Assembly: GCA_017429285.1 (NCBI GenBank)
Contig: JAFRPF010000001.1
Coordinates: forward strand, 40,299-104,298
Direction of reading: 5' to 3'
Length of the DNA stretch: 64,000 bases
Origin: Bacilli bacterium
Lineage (GTDB): Bacteria; Bacillota_I; Bacilli_A; RFN20; CAG-826
Shown: positions 53,755-60,550 of the stretch, one piece after another
Layout of the letters: every line of letters begins with the position of its first letter
Numbering within the stretch: the first letter of the stretch is position 1
Program-made: the position numbers and the translations under genes
Notes under the pieces: generated by a model
Told to the model about the DNA's origin: nothing
The model's database searches: none
The model's input: the letters and a program-made list of their open reading frames with translations, nothing else

Positions 53755-54489
53755 TTATAATATTTTCTCTAAAAATATCGGCAGTTGATATTTCCAACTT
53801 GGCCAATCGTGGATACTATTATGATCCCAGAAATGAAATTCAATATTAATTCCTTTTTCGTCAGCGATATTTCTTAATTCATAATTTGATTCGATAACCA
53901 AATATTCATACGCTCCTTCACCCACTACTGAAATCATCTTTCTTTGATTATATAAATCTATATAGTAATGATCCTTAGGCATATTAGCTAAATAATGAGT
54001 GGGTGAATTGTTATAAATGTTTTCATCCATATAATGGAAATAATTGCCGATACTATATTCCGCACTTAAAGCGATAAAACCAGCGAATAAATCAGGTCTT
54101 CTAAAGAAGTTATTGGAAGCATGTGTCCCACCCATCGACATACCGATAAGATAAGGCATACAAAATCCACCTTGTTTATCATAGATAAGTGGCATCGCTT
54201 CATTAACTAGATATTGGTGATACATCTCAAATTTATAACCGCACTGGGCTTTATCCCAACTTGATGAATTAATTGTCTCATCATCATTAGAATCTAAACA
54301 GAATAGTTTCATTCTTCCACCTTCGATAAAAGGAGATAAAACATCAATCATCCCGTTATTATAAAAATCATCGCTTTGTTTTCCTAAGCACGGAAAAGCA
54401 ATCACGGGAACCCCATAATGCCCATATATCTTGATATTCATATGACGATTTAATCTTTCACTAAACCAGGAAACTTCTTCATATTTCAT
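53755..54489 (-). CDS. Putative esterase (alpha/beta hydrolase)
   Basis: YGHYG.P, GMSMGG and HDWPSW. Confidence 0.85.
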   Translation of the reverse strand: MKYEEVSWFSERLNRHMNIKIYGHYGVPVIAFPCLGKQSDDFYNNGMIDVLSPFIEGGRMKLFCLDSNDDETINSSSWDKAQCGYKFEMYHQYLVNEAMPLIYDKQGGFCMPYLIGMSMGGTHASNNFFRRPDLFAGFIALSAEYSIGNYFHYMDENIYNNSPTHYLANMPKDHYYIDLYNQRKMISVVGEGAYEYLVIESNYELRNIADEKGINIEFHFWDHNSIHDWPSWKYQLPIFLEKIL

Positions 54490-54600
54490 ATAAAAAATAT
54501 TATCAAATTATTTATTAAATGATTAAGAAAACCTCTTAACGTGTCATTTACGAAAGAGGTTCTTTGGTTATTATAATTATAATTTAATCTTAAATTAGTT

Positions 54601-55449
54601 CTATTCTCCGATATAAATAAGTTCCATACCTTCATTACCGAATACGGTATTAACGTATGCCTGAGTATCGCAGAAAGATAAGCAACATTGTTTATTAAGT
54701 TCGCCTGTCGCCACTGTCTTTTGTTCTAACTCTGCATCAAAAGCACTCTTGCGAGCGTTGTATTCACTTCTGAGTCTATTACCATCGTCAGAGGTATCAT
54801 CTTCAAAGACGTAATAATATCTTCCTTCATCGCTTGCTTTGTCATATTCAAAATAAATGATGGTCTCAGAATCGGATTTCTGATAATATTTGAAATCTTT
54901 TACTTCTTCATTAGCAAAATCGTAACCGATTTCATAGAATAAAGGACTATAGTGTTCTGTGGTTTCTTCTTTGCTTTGGCCTTGTTTACTCTTTTGATAT
55001 CCAGAGAAGAACATTTTACCATTTACTTTGTCTAAAGAAGATTTCATGTCAACTTCTAATGCCATATATGAAGTTTGCGAACCCATCTTCACATTAAATT
55101 CACCATTAAAGTAAATAGGTTTAGCGGTCATATCGTAATTAGCCCTATCCATAACAGTACCTGTTAGATAGAAATAGATACCTGGTTGTCGAAGTTCAAA
55201 AGCCAAACTATCCGCAGACGCAGGCTGCCATCCTTTATGAACTGGGGAAGGATTTTGCGGCATTTTTGCTTTAGCAAGTTGAAGCATTTGATCGCCAGCT
55301 TTTTTAAATAATCTCGCATCATCATTCTCCGCTTGACTAGTTTCGGGCGTGCTTTCTTCCTGTTTAGAGCTACTACCTTTTTTCGGAGTACAACCCACTA
55401 ATAAAAATAGGGAAAGAATCGATACTCCAATCGTTAATTTGTTTTTCAT
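54601..55449 (-). CDS. Hypothetical lipoprotein
   Basis: Lipobox LVGC and a Ser/Glu-rich linker. Confidence 0.8.
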   Translation of the reverse strand: MKNKLTIGVSILSLFLLVGCTPKKGSSSKQEESTPETSQAENDDARLFKKAGDQMLQLAKAKMPQNPSPVHKGWQPASADSLAFELRQPGIYFYLTGTVMDRANYDMTAKPIYFNGEFNVKMGSQTSYMALEVDMKSSLDKVNGKMFFSGYQKSKQGQSKEETTEHYSPLFYEIGYDFANEEVKDFKYYQKSDSETIIYFEYDKASDEGRYYYVFEDDTSDDGNRLRSEYNARKSAFDAELEQKTVATGELNKQCCLSFCDTQAYVNTVFGNEGMELIYIGE

Positions 55450-55533
55450 AATAAAATCTCCTACTTGTAATATAGCAAGTAGTTTTTATCTAATCAACAT
55501 TTTTACTAATACGTTTTAACTTTTATAATTGTT

Positions 55534-56946
55534 TTATTTAAACATATGTGGATATTTTTTAAGCATAAAGTCTATGTCTTTATCACCACGTCCACTTAGA
55601 TTAACTAAAATTGATCCGCTTTTCATATTTCTAGCACATTTAATGGCATAAGCTAAAGCATGGGATGATTCGATCGCCGGAATAATACCTTCTAATCTAG
55701 ATAAAAGGAAGAAAGCTTCAGCGGCTTCATCGTCTGTCACATATTCATATTTCACTCTACCAACTTCTTTTAAGAAAGCATGTTCTGGACCGACCCCTGG
55801 ATAATCAAGTCCACTTGCAATGCTATAAGCATCACCAGGAGTACCGTCTTTATTTTGTAACACTAAAGAATTAAATCCATGTAATACCATTTCTTTTCCT
55901 AAAGTCATAGTGGCGCTATTTTTTCCAGGTTCTTCACCTTTTCCCATCGCTTCTACACCCACGATATTAACTGGTTCATTTAAAAATGCTTCAAACATTC
56001 CAATAGCGTTAGAACCACCACCGACACAAGCGGTAACAATATCTGGTAATTCACCAGTCATTTCTAAGAATTGTTCTTTCGCTTCTCTTCCGATAACTTC
56101 TTGGAAATCTCTCACCATTAATGGATATGGATGAGGTCCAACCGCACTTCCAATAACATAAAAAGCTGTTTTATATTCTTTAGCATAAGCTTCAAAAGCA
56201 GCATCTACTGCTTCTTTTAACGTCTTAGTGCCATGTTTAACTGGAATTACTTTCGCGCCAAGCATCTTTATTCTAGAAACATTCGGTGCTTGTTTTTCCA
56301 TATCTACTTCGCCCATGTATATTTCACACTCTAAACCGAAATAGGCTGCCGCCATAGCCACGGCGGTACCATGAGATCCAGCACCTGTTTCCGCAATCAA
56401 TTTCTTTTTACCTAAATACTTTGCTAATAGTGCTTGTCCCATCGCATTATTTAATTTATGAGCCCCACCATGATTAAGATCTTCTCTTTTTAAATATATT
56501 TGGACGCGACCTAAATAATTAGAAAGGTTTTGGCAGTGATATATAGGTGTGGGTCTGCCTTGATAATTCTTTCTAATTTCTCTTAATTCAGAAATAAATT
56601 TTGAAGATTTAGCAATTGTTTGATAACCATAATAAATTTCATCCATTGCCTTCTTTAAATTACTAGGCAAATAAGCACCACCATAACGACCAAAATATCC
56701 ATCATCACTCGGATATTGTTTACGATAATTTGTAAAATCGATGTTTATTCCCTTTAATGGTGAATCTTCAAATAATCTTTGTCCTTTAATACGACGGTCT
56801 AAAGGTTTAACGGCATTTTCTGGAATTAAATATTTATGTCCTTGTAATATCGCACCTTCAATGCGTTTCTCTTTTAAAAGAGATCTCACTCTTCTTTCGT
56901 TAATTCCAAACTTTTTAGAGGCTTCTGATACGGTAATATATTTCAT
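55534..56946 (-). CDS. trpB: Tryptophan synthase beta chain with an N-terminal HTH domain
   Basis: [12 protein letters not shown] (PLP Lys), [25 protein letters not shown] and LSGRGDKD. The N-terminal ~55 aa [21 protein letters not shown] is HTH-like. Confidence 0.92.
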
Positions 56947-57020
56947 ACCTTTAAATTCCTTTCGGTATATTCTTTATGCCTATTATAACCATTTATTTAT
57001 AAATATAAAATACAAATAAC

Positions 57021-57044
57021 AAAAAATGACTCATTTCGAGTCAC
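57021..57044 (-). terminator. Terminator after the putative 6S RNA
   Basis: TGACTC-GAAAT-GAGTCA-TTTTTT on the minus strand. Confidence 0.8.
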
Positions 57045-57049
57045 TAATT

Positions 57050-57175
57050 GTTTGTCAACCAGGTCAGCGCGCTCCTGGATCGCTGTGTACCACCTATTAA
57101 GGTGCGCCGTGGTCGTACGCTGACGTTTGCTCTCCAATATTTCTATCGCAGAGGACGTACATCTCCACCTTTGAC
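57050..57175 (-). ncRNA. ssrS: Probable 6S RNA (compact)
   Basis: GC-rich intergenic island. Closing stem GTCAA..AGGT/ACCT..TTGAC, inner TGTAC/GTACA, central bubble with a 3' hairpin CACCT-TAAT-AGGTG. TATAAT at 57187-82 predicts +1 at 57175; own terminator. Confidence 0.55.
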
Positions 57176-57215
57176 AAACAAATTATAAATTAAATATAAA
57201 TATTGGGATACTTTT

Positions 57216-57893
57216 TTATTTTATTTTTAAACTTTTTAAATAAACCTTATGTTCTTCGCTTACACGATATGATTCAACGGCTTTTTGAATAGCCTTATTG
57301 TGAGTGATTTTATCAAATCTTTTTTCTTCTATAGCTTTAATGAACAAATCATAATTTTTCGCTAATCCAGTAGCGAGATACCACGCTACCACCATCATGA
57401 CATAGTAATCATCGGCTTTTATTTCTTGGACTTTTAATAAGTGTTCTTCTTTAAATTCATCACCTAAGTAATAATTCATTAAACATTTAACCGCGTATCT
57501 AACTCGATATATTTCTTTGCTTTTCAGCCAAACATAAATTTCTTTAATTAATTTATCTAAATGTTTATATAAGTGTTTATTACATATCGTATCGCATACC
57601 AACCAATTACTAACATAAGGAAGAAAAGAATCCACTCTTTTAATAAATTCATCATAATCTTTTATATTTGAAAGAATAAACGCATGTAAGACGTTTTCCT
57701 CATGATATTTATGAGGTAAACAATCTAAGAATTCTTCTTTATCTTTTATATCTAATTCTTTCGCGTATTTCTTAAGAATTGGAAGACGAACCCCAATAAA
57801 TGTCTTCTCATCAACATTAGGAATTAAAGGCAAAGTAAAGTCACGATATTTTTGATCAGCTTGTGATAATAAATACTCTTGAATATTATTCAT
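57216..57893 (-). CDS. AlkD-family DNA alkylation repair protein
   Basis: FIGVRLP.L, YVSNWLVCD, YYV.M.VAWYLA and NKAIQKA.ES.R. Confidence 0.85.
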   Translation of the reverse strand: MNNIQEYLLSQADQKYRDFTLPLIPNVDEKTFIGVRLPILKKYAKELDIKDKEEFLDCLPHKYHEENVLHAFILSNIKDYDEFIKRVDSFLPYVSNWLVCDTICNKHLYKHLDKLIKEIYVWLKSKEIYRVRYAVKCLMNYYLGDEFKEEHLLKVQEIKADDYYVMMVVAWYLATGLAKNYDLFIKAIEEKRFDKITHNKAIQKAVESYRVSEEHKVYLKSLKIK

Positions 57894-57908
57894 GTCGTTA
57901 TTGTATCA

Positions 57909-57935
57909 AAAAAGTCGCCACAAAGGACGACTTTA
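57909..57935 (-). terminator. Terminator after the lipoprotein gene
   Basis: AAAGTCG...CGACTTT inverted repeat with an A-run on the left. Confidence 0.6.
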
Positions 57936-57952
57936 TAGTGTTTGTAACTAAG

Positions 57953-59236
57953 TTATTCGATATCTGGAAGAGTAACACTTGTTGAGCCAATATTTTTGAC
58001 TTTCACTGAGACTGAATAGATATGATCTTCTTCGCCTACAAATCCTGCTTCATAAGAAACATATGAATATGACTGAAGTTCATTATATAAGAATGCGATT
58101 TGGTATTCTTTACAAACATAGTCTGTGGTGTTTTTTGTATAAGCTGTATCTTCTTTTAGATTATAAACTCCATTATCTTTATCGAAATTGAATTGATTAA
58201 AAGAGAAATCGAGAAGTTCCGCTCTAAATTTAACGACATTTAAATAGTCTCCACTGCTAGGTATCGTGTACCATTCTTGTGTACTTTCAGAGAAGTAATA
58301 AACATCAAAGTCAATTTCATGAGTGTCTTCTTTATAACTGTCTTTATCAAATTTGTAATAATTATGATCAATTTGTTCTCCGTCTTTATCACAAATTAAT
58401 TCGTCAATCTTATCATTATCAAATTTAACAACACGTTGAGTTACTTCCCCACCAATATTGGACTCTATTTCAAGAGTGACATTTGATTCAAATTGGAATT
58501 TTGTATATTTAGAGACCCAGTCATTAAATGTGCCTGAATTGACATGTTTAATAAGTGGGAAACTAGCTGTTGTTGTGCCACGATTAATAGCTTTTAATTC
58601 AGCATTCATACCCATCATAGGTTGATCCTTAGGACCGAATTTAGCTTTATATGAATCTAGTTTACCATTTATGAATTGATAAGAAAGTTCGTTAATTAAC
58701 ATTTCATCATGGCCAACGCCTACTGTAACTGGTTCGATAAGATTATACGTTTTTGTTGCTTCGTCATAGGAAATTTTGTCGAAACCTACGACAAGAATAT
58801 ATGATGATTCAGTGCTTATTTCACCAACATCAAACATGCCACATTTATAATCTCCTCCGTAAAAATCTCCACCTGGTTCCACAGTGTAAGCCTGAGTATA
58901 AACCTTTCCCTCTGATAAAGTAGAATAATCGAACTTGAAGGAGTTACTAGGTGTTTCGGTGTCGCCGAAAGATGATTCCACAACATTATCAGCAATTTTT
59001 GTAATTAATGGAGCTTCATACATTCCCATAGCGGCTGTACCAGAATAAGTAACATTCTGGTGAATAAAGAAACCGCGATCAGTCATTTCAGCTTTATAAG
59101 CCTCTGCACTTATGACATTAGAATCTACTACTTCAGGTTCTGAACTTTCGGAGGATGATGATTTTTTATTTTTACATCCCACTAAACCTAATGAAGCACT
59201 TAATGAAATCATTAATAGAAGTTTAATTTTTTGCAT
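57953..59236 (-). CDS. Lipoprotein with an internally duplicated ~190-aa domain
   Basis: Lipobox LVGC and Ser-rich linker; halves align (FDKISYDEATKTYNL/FNQFNFDKDNGVYNL; NRGTTTASFP/NIGSTSVTLP). Confidence 0.8.
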   Translation of the reverse strand: MQKIKLLLMISLSASLGLVGCKNKKSSSSESSEPEVVDSNVISAEAYKAEMTDRGFFIHQNVTYSGTAAMGMYEAPLITKIADNVVESSFGDTETPSNSFKFDYSTLSEGKVYTQAYTVEPGGDFYGGDYKCGMFDVGEISTESSYILVVGFDKISYDEATKTYNLIEPVTVGVGHDEMLINELSYQFINGKLDSYKAKFGPKDQPMMGMNAELKAINRGTTTASFPLIKHVNSGTFNDWVSKYTKFQFESNVTLEIESNIGGEVTQRVVKFDNDKIDELICDKDGEQIDHNYYKFDKDSYKEDTHEIDFDVYYFSESTQEWYTIPSSGDYLNVVKFRAELLDFSFNQFNFDKDNGVYNLKEDTAYTKNTTDYVCKEYQIAFLYNELQSYSYVSYEAGFVGEEDHIYSVSVKVKNIGSTSVTLPDIE

Positions 59237-59407
59237 TTTAAATACCTGCCTTTAATACTTTTATCATAGCCTTAGTTTAAATAGAAAAATATCTATTTTA
59301 AATTATTTAAAATAAAATCTTGATGCAATCGAATAAATTATTATTTGTTAAATATCGCCCATTATTAAGCTGAAAGCAATTTAGTTTATAGGAAAACATC
59401 TTGCTTA

Positions 59408-60550
59408 TCATTTTTTATAAGAGATGGTCGATGGTCCATATTCTCCATATTCACAACCAACATTATAGACATTAATATCATCGATAAGTTTGCCTTTATG
59501 AAATAGTTGAATCCGCCCCACACCATTACCACCATTAAATAAACGGTTATGTAATTTCTTTCCGTTTGGGGCTTCATAATTAACAAGAAGCATATCCTCT
59601 TTTAAACAAGTTATATCAGTGATCATTTTATTATTCCAAGTCTTCTGTTCGACATGCCACACTATATGTGTATCTGTTTCATAACAATCAAATTTTGTTC
59701 TAGTATTTGTCCAGAATTTAGAGAAATTAAATTCATAGCATTTACCTTCATAGTAGAAAGCACTTAGTAATTTGCCTTCTAAGGCAATAAATCCAACTTT
59801 AGGACGGCCACCACCGATATCAAAGACACTGTTTTCTAGCTTTTTATTAGTGATATTACTTACCATATTGTTGCTAGATAACCAAACCCAAGGAGATGTA
59901 AAATCTTTACCCCAGTTCTTATCGGAATAGCCATAGCTATCTTCTTTTCTAACAATGTATTCTTCACCGTCCGCGATTATTGTACCTGAGAATCTAGATT
60001 TCATTCCTTCAGCGTGCCAAAACATTTCAAAAAGTTGAAGATGTCTAAATAGCCACCCCGCTCCATAACCAACATTAAAAGCGATATCTTTTTCTATTTT
60101 TAAATCCCATGAAATGGAACCATAATCGCACATATATTCAGGATGTTTCTCCGATTCTTCTTTAGAAATGGAAATATTTCCTCTACTTTGATACTCATCT
60201 AAACAACAATCATCCGCGCTTATTGAAAATGGTGCTTTATAATTAACTTTTATCTTTTTCCAGCCAAAGAAACGATGGAGTTGCTTAGCACCTTTCCCCC
60301 AGTAGCCGATTTTGACCATTAGGTATGATGGTTTGATACCGGCTTCTTGATTTTCTTTTAATTGACCAAATACGGGTTCTTCTCCACCTCTTTTTGGATT
60401 GATTAAAAAGAATTCTAAAAAGAATGGGCGTGGTTCACCTGTTTTTGCGTTATAGGCTGTAAAAGAATGCCACCACCAATCATAGCCTTTCTTTCCTTGC
60501 CCACCATATAATTGGCATCTATTTCTTTGTTGTGATTTTTTGTTAAACAT
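59408..60550 (-). CDS. Tocopherol-cyclase-like protein
   Basis: GYDWWWHSF, FFLEFF.INP and GYSDKNWGKDFTSPWVW motifs typical of the family; GGGAGT RBS. Confidence 0.75.
   Translation of the reverse strand: MFNKKSQQRNRCQLYGGQGKKGYDWWWHSFTAYNAKTGEPRPFFLEFFLINPKRGGEEPVFGQLKENQEAGIKPSYLMVKIGYWGKGAKQLHRFFGWKKIKVNYKAPFSISADDCCLDEYQSRGNISISKEESEKHPEYMCDYGSISWDLKIEKDIAFNVGYGAGWLFRHLQLFEMFWHAEGMKSRFSGTIIADGEEYIVRKEDSYGYSDKNWGKDFTSPWVWLSSNNMVSNITNKKLENSVFDIGGGRPKVGFIALEGKLLSAFYYEGKCYEFNFSKFWTNTRTKFDCYETDTHIVWHVEQKTWNNKMITDITCLKEDMLLVNYEAPNGKKLHNRLFNGGNGVGRIQLFHKGKLIDDINVYNVGCEYGEYGPSTISYKK

Follow-up and report, generated by a model that had tools for sequence, protein, structure and literature searches.

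An orphan tryptophan synthase β-subunit with an excisionase-like head that probably recognizes its own leader in rumen Bacilli

Why does a tryptophan synthase β-subunit carry at its N-terminus a domain of the excisionase type? The question is raised by a trpB gene on contig JAFRPF010000001.1 of an uncultured rumen Bacilli bacterium (GTDB CAG-826, assembly GCA_017429285.1); all coordinates refer to the window, i.e., the whole 64,000-nucleotide (nt) stretch of this contig that was analyzed. A sequence-only reading of the locus had proposed a helix-turn-helix (HTH) domain fused to TrpB, and an autoregulating enzyme that may couple indole, Ser or Trp status to its own transcription. The answer that we consider probable is that an orphan TrpB carries a portable Xis/MerR-like head on a flexible tether, and that this head would recognize a CCG-core site in the leader of its own gene and exert negative autoregulation. 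The head is shared with many other enzymes, and this wider pattern, a common head whose sites follow a readable code, is a more interesting lead than the TrpB fusion alone.

The open reading frame (ORF) and its parts are the following (pLDDT, predicted local distance difference test):

55534..56946, minus strand: whole ORF, 470 amino acids plus stop, with HTH head, linker and TrpB; orthologues are equally long.
56803..56946, minus strand: winged-helix head of excisionase/MerR type, residues 1–48 (HTH_17 match, AlphaFold2, Foldseek).
56872..56898, minus strand: predicted recognition helix, residues 17–25 (ERRVRSLLK), from the fold model and family comparison.
56746..56802, minus strand: tether, residues 49–67, kept in sequence and predicted to be disordered.
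55537..56745, minus strand: complete TrpB1-type enzyme dependent on pyridoxal phosphate (PLP), residues 68–470 (TIGR00263, catalytic columns, pLDDT >90).
56455-56457, minus strand: Schiff-base Lys164 in the TrpB core, which also holds GGGSN (residues 309–313) and SGRGDKD (residues 451–457).

The frame is open throughout and begins with the N-terminal sequence quoted in the sequence-only reading, which had been right that this sequence reads in frame into TrpB. The fusion is not peculiar to this assembly. Its full-length architecture recurs in more than 120 clusters at 84–100% identity, a search with the head region gave at least 186 clusters (90% identity) with the fusion, and about 25 species-level metagenome-assembled genomes (MAGs) from rumen and gut, labeled Bacilli, Erysipelotrichaceae or Bacillales, contain it at identities down to 67–71%. 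Maximum-likelihood analysis of the TrpB core unites the 23 fused sequences in a single clade (support 100/99), sister to unfused Clostridia TrpBs within a Bacillota clade (100/100), which indicates one fusion event, retained across several genera; a head-region search for independent TrpB fusions elsewhere found only this clade, within the limits of its word index. Furthermore, two contigs from other studies of related strains (X5, X6) run from the leader through the head into TrpB, a transcript contig of a relative, from a rumen metatranscriptome, covers 56740–56890 (head residue 19 to TrpB residue 68), and a stop codon directly precedes the fusion start codon. An artefact of assembly or gene calling, or an accident of a single strain, which the sequence-only reading had itself raised as a danger, is excluded by these independent assemblies, junction-spanning contigs, transcript, clade and upstream stop, and we give it practically no credence. 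Two Christensenella loci that match from residue 19 (L047, L048) were rejected as fusions, being a translated T-box leader; in six-frame translation, the T-box leaders of Christensenella-type loci mimicked N-terminal extensions. Public records name the fused proteins merely tryptophan synthase subunit beta.

The head is a winged helix of the excisionase/HTH_17 type, in agreement with what had been suggested from the letters of the sequence. Pfam HTH_17 (PF12728) matches residues 3–46 (E 6.4e-5, 23.6 bits), and a precomputed PF12728 match is present in 8 of 120 orthologue clusters. The AlphaFold2 model shows a separate domain with a strand, helices at residues 6–13 and 17–25, and a β-hairpin at residues 33–42; with an alignment, the overall pLDDT is 90.7, with 82–89 for the head, 42 for residues 50–60 and >90 for the TrpB core. 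Folded alone, the head reaches a pLDDT of 87.8, and its best matches in the PDB (Foldseek) are lambda Xis-DNA complexes, with template-modeling (TM) scores of 0.74–0.76, a root-mean-square deviation of 1.6 Å and 31% identity. Further structural matches are the HK022, Tn916 and Pukovnik Xis proteins, BldC and the N-termini of MerR-family proteins including NmlR, and the sole match in a sequence-level PDB search is Tn916 Xis (E 0.11). All members of the family have R18 and R21 in the recognition helix, and positions 19 and 22–24 change with the type of site. Mean pairwise identity among orthologues is 0.71 for the head versus 0.84 for the core; the head, if less conserved than the enzyme, is clearly constrained. 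The tether also reaches 0.71 despite its predicted disorder.

The leader of the fused gene contains a predicted promoter, two inverted sites and a Shine-Dalgarno (SD) sequence:

56982..57009, minus strand: predicted sigma-70 promoter with -35 TTTATA, a 16-nt spacer and -10 TATAAT (56987..56982).
56960..56968, minus strand: site 1, ATACCGAAA, a conserved CCG-core site adjoining the SD.
56957..56961, minus strand: SD AAGGA, between both sites, conserved.
56945..56953, plus strand: site 2, inverted ATACCTTTA (GGTAT on the coding strand), overlapping the ATG.

Site 1 lies at about +7 to +15 relative to the predicted transcription start site (TSS), the -10 is conserved among orthologues, and site 2 is a full CCG site in three of them (L009, L011, L116). 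The order TATAAT, AGGnAnAAAG, TATACCGA(A/T)AGG (site 1 plus SD), variable stretch and GGTATG is conserved. The motif TATACCGA..GGTATG is invariant among fused-trpB leaders while flanks and upstream genes are unrelated between species, and it is thus a phylogenetic footprint. The inverted ATACC(G)/GGTAT repeat has a spacer of N14 in all 21 unique reference leaders, including that of L045, in which the ATG is shifted by 2 nt, and de novo k-mer counting found TACCGA in 18 of 20 fused-trpB leaders versus 13 of 802 controls. The AGGnAnAAAG block (56970–56981), present in nearly all fused-trpB leaders, is explained neither by the site model nor by the SD; it may be the transcript start or a part of the operator.

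An imperfect inverted repeat, ATACC-GAAA-GGAAT, had been placed between the -10 box and the start by the sequence-only reading, and it is indeed there (56968..56955, minus strand, between TATAAT at 56987..56982 and the ATG at 56946). Its 5′ arm is the conserved site, but its 3′ arm, GGAAT, varies among orthologues and is merely SD region, so that this short palindrome was rejected as the operator. A regulon beyond trpB was likewise rejected: scans of the host genome for ATACC-N14-GGTAT, TATACCGAAAGG and ATACCGA[AT] returned no gene-proximal site besides trpB, and intergenic copies of the site motif are not enriched there (7/178).

That the same type of head is a module on Fic proteins, as stated in the sequence-only reading, is borne out in relatives, where heads 41–53% identical stand at the N-terminus of Fic proteins and also of M18 aminopeptidases. 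Of 201 genomes of the order searched with a profile, 58 have the head. Its partners comprise AdhE (L144, 921 residues), galactokinase (L147 and L148, 467–470 residues), M18 aminopeptidase (L154, L016 and L017, about 493 residues), an N6 DNA methylase (L146, 690 residues), a LuxR-type protein (L150, 408 residues) and AAA-ATPase/PD-(D/E)XK proteins, and stand-alone head proteins of 60–160 residues exist. Three proteins of 270–325 residues (P0124, P0125, P0129) consist solely of 5–6 tandem head copies and may bind arrays of repeats. The host genome has no other intact head-bearing gene. On host contig C30, outside the window (~1190–1300), a Fic-type operator, TTGCCGATATCGGCAA followed by TTGCCGATAGAGG, is kept at a decayed head gene, the remnant of which has six head codons and reads ATG ATG GAA TAT ATT TCA GTA (MMEYISV) before the frame is lost, with a stop in the next 25 codons or so.

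Sites with a common CCG core recur at the promoters of most of these genes. The motif [TA][TAG]CCGA[TA] lies upstream of 37 of 42 non-redundant head-bearing genes, versus 7% of 803 host control genes (p 1e-61) and 16% of neighboring genes (p 9e-13). De novo k-mers, with the TrpB and non-TrpB sets run separately, are enriched at p 1e-19 to 1e-26, and TTGCCG is present at 14 of 22 non-TrpB head genes versus 10 of 802 controls. Where the helix of a Fic protein reads SERS(V/I)RNYC, the palindrome TTGCCG-N4-CGGCAA lies distally in the promoter and TTGCCGATAA proximally, immediately 5′ of the -10; a second Fic group (SERRIRxLC) has 3–4 direct repeats (A/G)TTCCGATA spaced by ~21 nt, the last of which adjoins the SD, as in trpB. 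The class of the helix goes with the class of the site, ERS..NYC with TTGCCG, ERR..LC with TTCCG and NERRVR..LL with ATACCG, and the genes fetched later obey this rule (AdhE L144, M18 L154, L151, L152 and L150).

The enzyme to which the head is joined is a TrpB in its own right. TIGR00263 (trpB) matches residues 83–463 with 540.8 bits against a cut-off of 392.45, and the models for TrpB2 and TrpB-like proteins score well below their own cut-offs (TIGR01415, 183 bits versus 519). H163, K164, E186–G190, G309–N313 and S451–D457 are invariant columns in a 62-sequence alignment, and on these intact motifs we infer that the enzyme is catalytically intact. In two places the clade departs from motifs that are near-invariant in other TrpBs, with HGGAHK in place of HTGAHK (residues 160–164 region) and ETGAGSHG in place of ETGAGQHG (residues 186–193); these changes may be linked to TrpA-independent activity. 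The nearest unfused TrpBs, in which the tether is absent, have their N-terminus at about residue 68, so that the added piece is the head (1–48) plus the tether (49–67), in keeping with the earlier statement that canonical TrpB has no such domain. A single chain thus joins an enzyme to a predicted DNA-binding domain, as in a trigger enzyme.

The host genome (1.26 Mb, 94.5% complete, 34% GC) offers this TrpB no partner. No trpA (TIGR00262) was found in it or in any of 13 further fused genomes, with positive controls matched in all 14, so that these genomes encode no TrpA partner for an α2β2 tryptophan synthase; trpA is present in 4 of the 7 closest unfused genomes. Indole-glycerol-phosphate synthase (trpC) was not found in the host genome, and only a sub-threshold trpD-like match was. 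The genes around the fused trpB have no relation to Trp synthesis and differ between species, which, with the absence of trpA, makes the fused trpB an orphan. An orphan without a trpA/trpC/trpD route has indole salvage as its likely role, and, by analogy with the orphan or salvage TrpB that works on environmental indole in gut Bifidobacterium (PMC11085991) and in Chlamydia, the fused enzyme probably makes Trp from free or environmental indole and Ser in a Trp-auxotrophic bacterium. At the sister unfused loci, T-box leaders (RF00230) score above the Rfam gathering score in 4 of 10 cases (L047, L049, L050, L051), and a scan of 54000–60000 in the window at E≤1 gave no T-box (RF00230) or riboswitch and one chance match to a direct repeat of the CRISPR (clustered regularly interspaced short palindromic repeats) type.

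We propose that the head would recognize the CCG-core site ATACCGA(A/T)A just downstream of its own -10/TSS, beside the SD, and would probably also contact the weaker inverted copy over the start codon, 19 bp away. TrpB is normally a β2 dimer, and its two heads could thus presumably reach both sites. Occupancy at the leader sites should block transcription of the gene, and such negative autoregulation would hold the TrpB level steady. DNA binding by the head, repression rather than activation as the output, and bridging of both sites by the dimer are the steps that we infer from the comparative data. The footprint in the leader, the related sites at other head genes, and the co-variation of helix and site make a strong comparative case for autoregulation; this part of the sequence-only reading thus stands in the form that the protein probably acts on its own promoter, and the proposed coupling to metabolites is weighed separately below.

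Several observations count against autoregulation through these sites. The head's 23.6 bits fall below the HTH_17 gathering score of 27, which homologous heads in relatives exceed (30.5, 35.6 and 35.9 bits). The site and motif classes were set after inspection of the data, and the TrpB leaders are orthologous and hence non-independent observations. Cross-set 5-mer tests between TrpB and non-TrpB genes are weakly significant (p 0.004–0.03), because the specificities differ and the common feature is the CCG(A) core, and some head-bearing genes (M18 L016, GalK L147 and L148) have no clear site. In the main clade, the second half-site is without the G of the CCG core, so that binding may be single-site, and the spacer is N13 in the two related strains X5 and X6. 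Finally, the arms of the leader can pair into a hairpin whose loop holds the SD and whose stem includes the AUG, and in the main clade they vary too little to separate a DNA from an RNA reading. If the repeat were such an mRNA hairpin (UAUACC/GGUAUG) controlling translation or stability, the head would have another target or role. The hairpin is the minimum-free-energy structure, with -4.1 kcal/mol for this gene and -7 to -11 kcal/mol for some orthologues; it is longer in L009, L011 and L045, the GUGCC of L038 and L116 preserves pairing through G.U, and L046 builds a similar SD-enclosing hairpin from different sequence. However, the stem is weak in the present gene, and the arms are conserved in sequence without co-variation at a constant spacer of 14; with invariant arms, pair counts and covariation are uninformative on the hairpin. 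The variant arms (GTGCC in L038 and L116, and those of L046) are themselves CCG-core sites of the family. The evidence that tips the balance lies outside the main clade: in the L045/L116 subclade of TrpB the inverted sites flank the -10, in the layout TATCGGCAA-TTTTATAAT-TATACCGAAA, and the 5′ partner site, upstream of the -10, is untranscribed, which is evidence against a purely RNA hairpin, and the counterparts of these sites at Fic, M18 and AdhE genes are located in promoter spacers and in DNA further upstream. This comparison favors a DNA operator, and we regard control by an RNA hairpin as improbable.

Acceptance of a DNA operator leaves the question of whether the enzyme also acts as the sensor. 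A full trigger enzyme, in which the state of TrpB (indole, Ser, Trp or PLP intermediates) controls whether the head binds DNA, would extend our explanation, and is in line with the metabolite coupling of the sequence-only reading. BirA and PutA are familiar precedents. Another is RbkR (PMC5397151). The sister unfused trpB genes are under T-box leaders that sense Trp-tRNA, so that a Trp-responsive replacement would be expected in the fused clade, and the tether, conserved though predicted to be disordered, could dock on the enzyme in one state. Against a switch, the linker is of low confidence in the model and probably flexible, and no second target gene bearing a site was found in the host genome. 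The same head with a similar, disordered tether of 10–20 residues stands on unrelated enzymes and on non-enzymes (among its carriers AdhE, GalK, M18 and Fic), which points to a generic self-regulating module and not to a TrpB-specific sensor. A generic ligand-independent autoregulator is, we would argue, the more economical idea, and a metabolite switch seems to us rather unlikely. A head without regulatory function, tethering the enzyme to DNA or the nucleoid or making protein contacts, e.g., as a stand-in for TrpA that activates TrpB, would suit the usually low activity of TrpB1 enzymes that lack TrpA (PMC11917138) and the absence of TrpA from every fused genome tested. However, head and core are not confidently docked in the model, the same head stands on proteins that have no TrpA-like partner, and the sites lie specifically at the head genes' own promoters; such a role is very improbable, and autoregulation by the head at its own leader is the reading we retain.

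How does the fusion relate to known regulators of similar build? BirA and PutA are enzymes with an N-terminal DNA-binding domain that represses genes of their own pathway. They share with the fusion the union of DNA-binding domain and enzyme in one chain, which in the fusion is predicted to act on the promoter of its own gene. The DNA-binding domain of BirA is another kind of winged HTH, that of PutA a ribbon-helix-helix and the head here Xis-like, and the binding of BirA and PutA is coupled to the state of the reaction (biotinyl-AMP; redox state of flavin adenine dinucleotide), a coupling that seems rather unlikely in the fusion. The MocR/GabR/PdxR regulators join a GntR-type winged HTH to a PLP-dependent domain resembling fold-type I aminotransferases. 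Here, too, there is an N-terminal HTH, a linker and a PLP-dependent domain, and MocR-type dimers bind paired sites near their own promoter; the fusion differs in that its head is of Xis/MerR type, its enzyme is of the PALP fold type II with all catalytic motifs, and a bona fide TrpB takes the place of a degenerate sensor. The protein is thus not a member of the BirA, PutA or MocR groups, because head type and enzyme fold differ. The Xis proteins of lambda, HK022 and Tn916 and BldC of Streptomyces, the best structural matches (TM 0.70–0.76), resemble the head family in that it, too, is associated with repeats in direct or inverted arrays and also occurs stand-alone and in tandem; they are stand-alone architectural or developmental binders, in contrast to an N-terminal enzyme module with sites at its own promoter. 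HTH_17-headed Fic proteins have a homologous head and CCG-core sites at their own promoters, and differ in the partner domain and in having TTGCCG or TTCCG sites instead of ATACCG.

On the side of the enzyme, the closest TrpBs are those of the sister Clostridia clade (64–71% identity), some encoded by a single trpB with its own leader; T-box leaders, found at 4 of the 10 sister loci, contrast with the fused clade, which has no Rfam match and instead the head and its sites. Orphan TrpB systems, i.e., genital strains of Chlamydia trachomatis, Bifidobacterium (PMC11085991) and plTrpB (PMC11917138), likewise have TrpB without the full trp pathway, and share with the fusion a host-associated, indole-containing habitat. 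In Chlamydia, TrpA is kept and serves TrpB allosterically (PMC8376405), and repression is left to a separate protein, TrpR; the fused genomes tested have no TrpA, and the enzyme itself carries the presumed repressor function. In the literature, no paper was found that describes an HTH fused to TrpB or a DNA-binding domain on any fold-type II PLP enzyme, and nothing relevant on HTH_17-Fic, HTH-galactokinase or autoregulation by this head.

Two neighboring elements were seen in the window. An AT-rich hairpin at 55514–55543 overlaps the trpB stop codon (55534–55536); it gives the chance CRISPR-repeat match (E 0.49, no array) and is more likely a terminator than a CRISPR repeat. Upstream of the gene, a GC-rich structured element of ~150 nt (57025–57185, minus strand) is preceded at ~7 nt by a TATAAT of its own and carries an intrinsic terminator (57045..57025); Rfam gave no match to it at E≤1. 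The host has one copy. A trpB-less genome of the same genus has the element at 97% identity, a genome of another genus has two copies (76–78% identity), and a rumen metatranscriptome contains it at greater depth than trpB. As a separate element with its own promoter and terminator that is present without trpB, it was rejected as trpB leader; we regard it as probably a small RNA gene, so far undescribed and with no connection to trpB.

Taken beyond TrpB, the data allow a wider proposal, which we hold tentatively and with slightly less than even confidence: a lineage-wide device, in which a cassette of promoter, operator and ~50-residue winged-helix head would make any gene placed behind it self-regulating, and which has been joined to TrpB, AdhE, galactokinase, M18, Fic, AAA-ATPase/nuclease and methylase genes in an order of small-genome gut and rumen Bacilli. 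Its code would be readable, helix positions 19 and 22–24 setting the bases 5′ of an invariant CCG, and at trpB the cassette would replace the T-box of the sister lineage. Self-repressing enzymes are few and mostly one-off cases, whereas in these very small genomes one small head stands on many unrelated enzymes, and the predicted operators shift together with the recognition helix. The annotation has a gap in this respect, as the public name tryptophan synthase subunit beta hides the head. If binding holds true, the head would be a natural design for self-limiting expression without a separate regulator and a candidate protein-DNA recognition code; the fused TrpB, having long evolved without TrpA, would be relevant to the engineering of stand-alone TrpB biocatalysts, and the whole would represent a route by which reduced-genome gut bacteria may regulate salvage metabolism.

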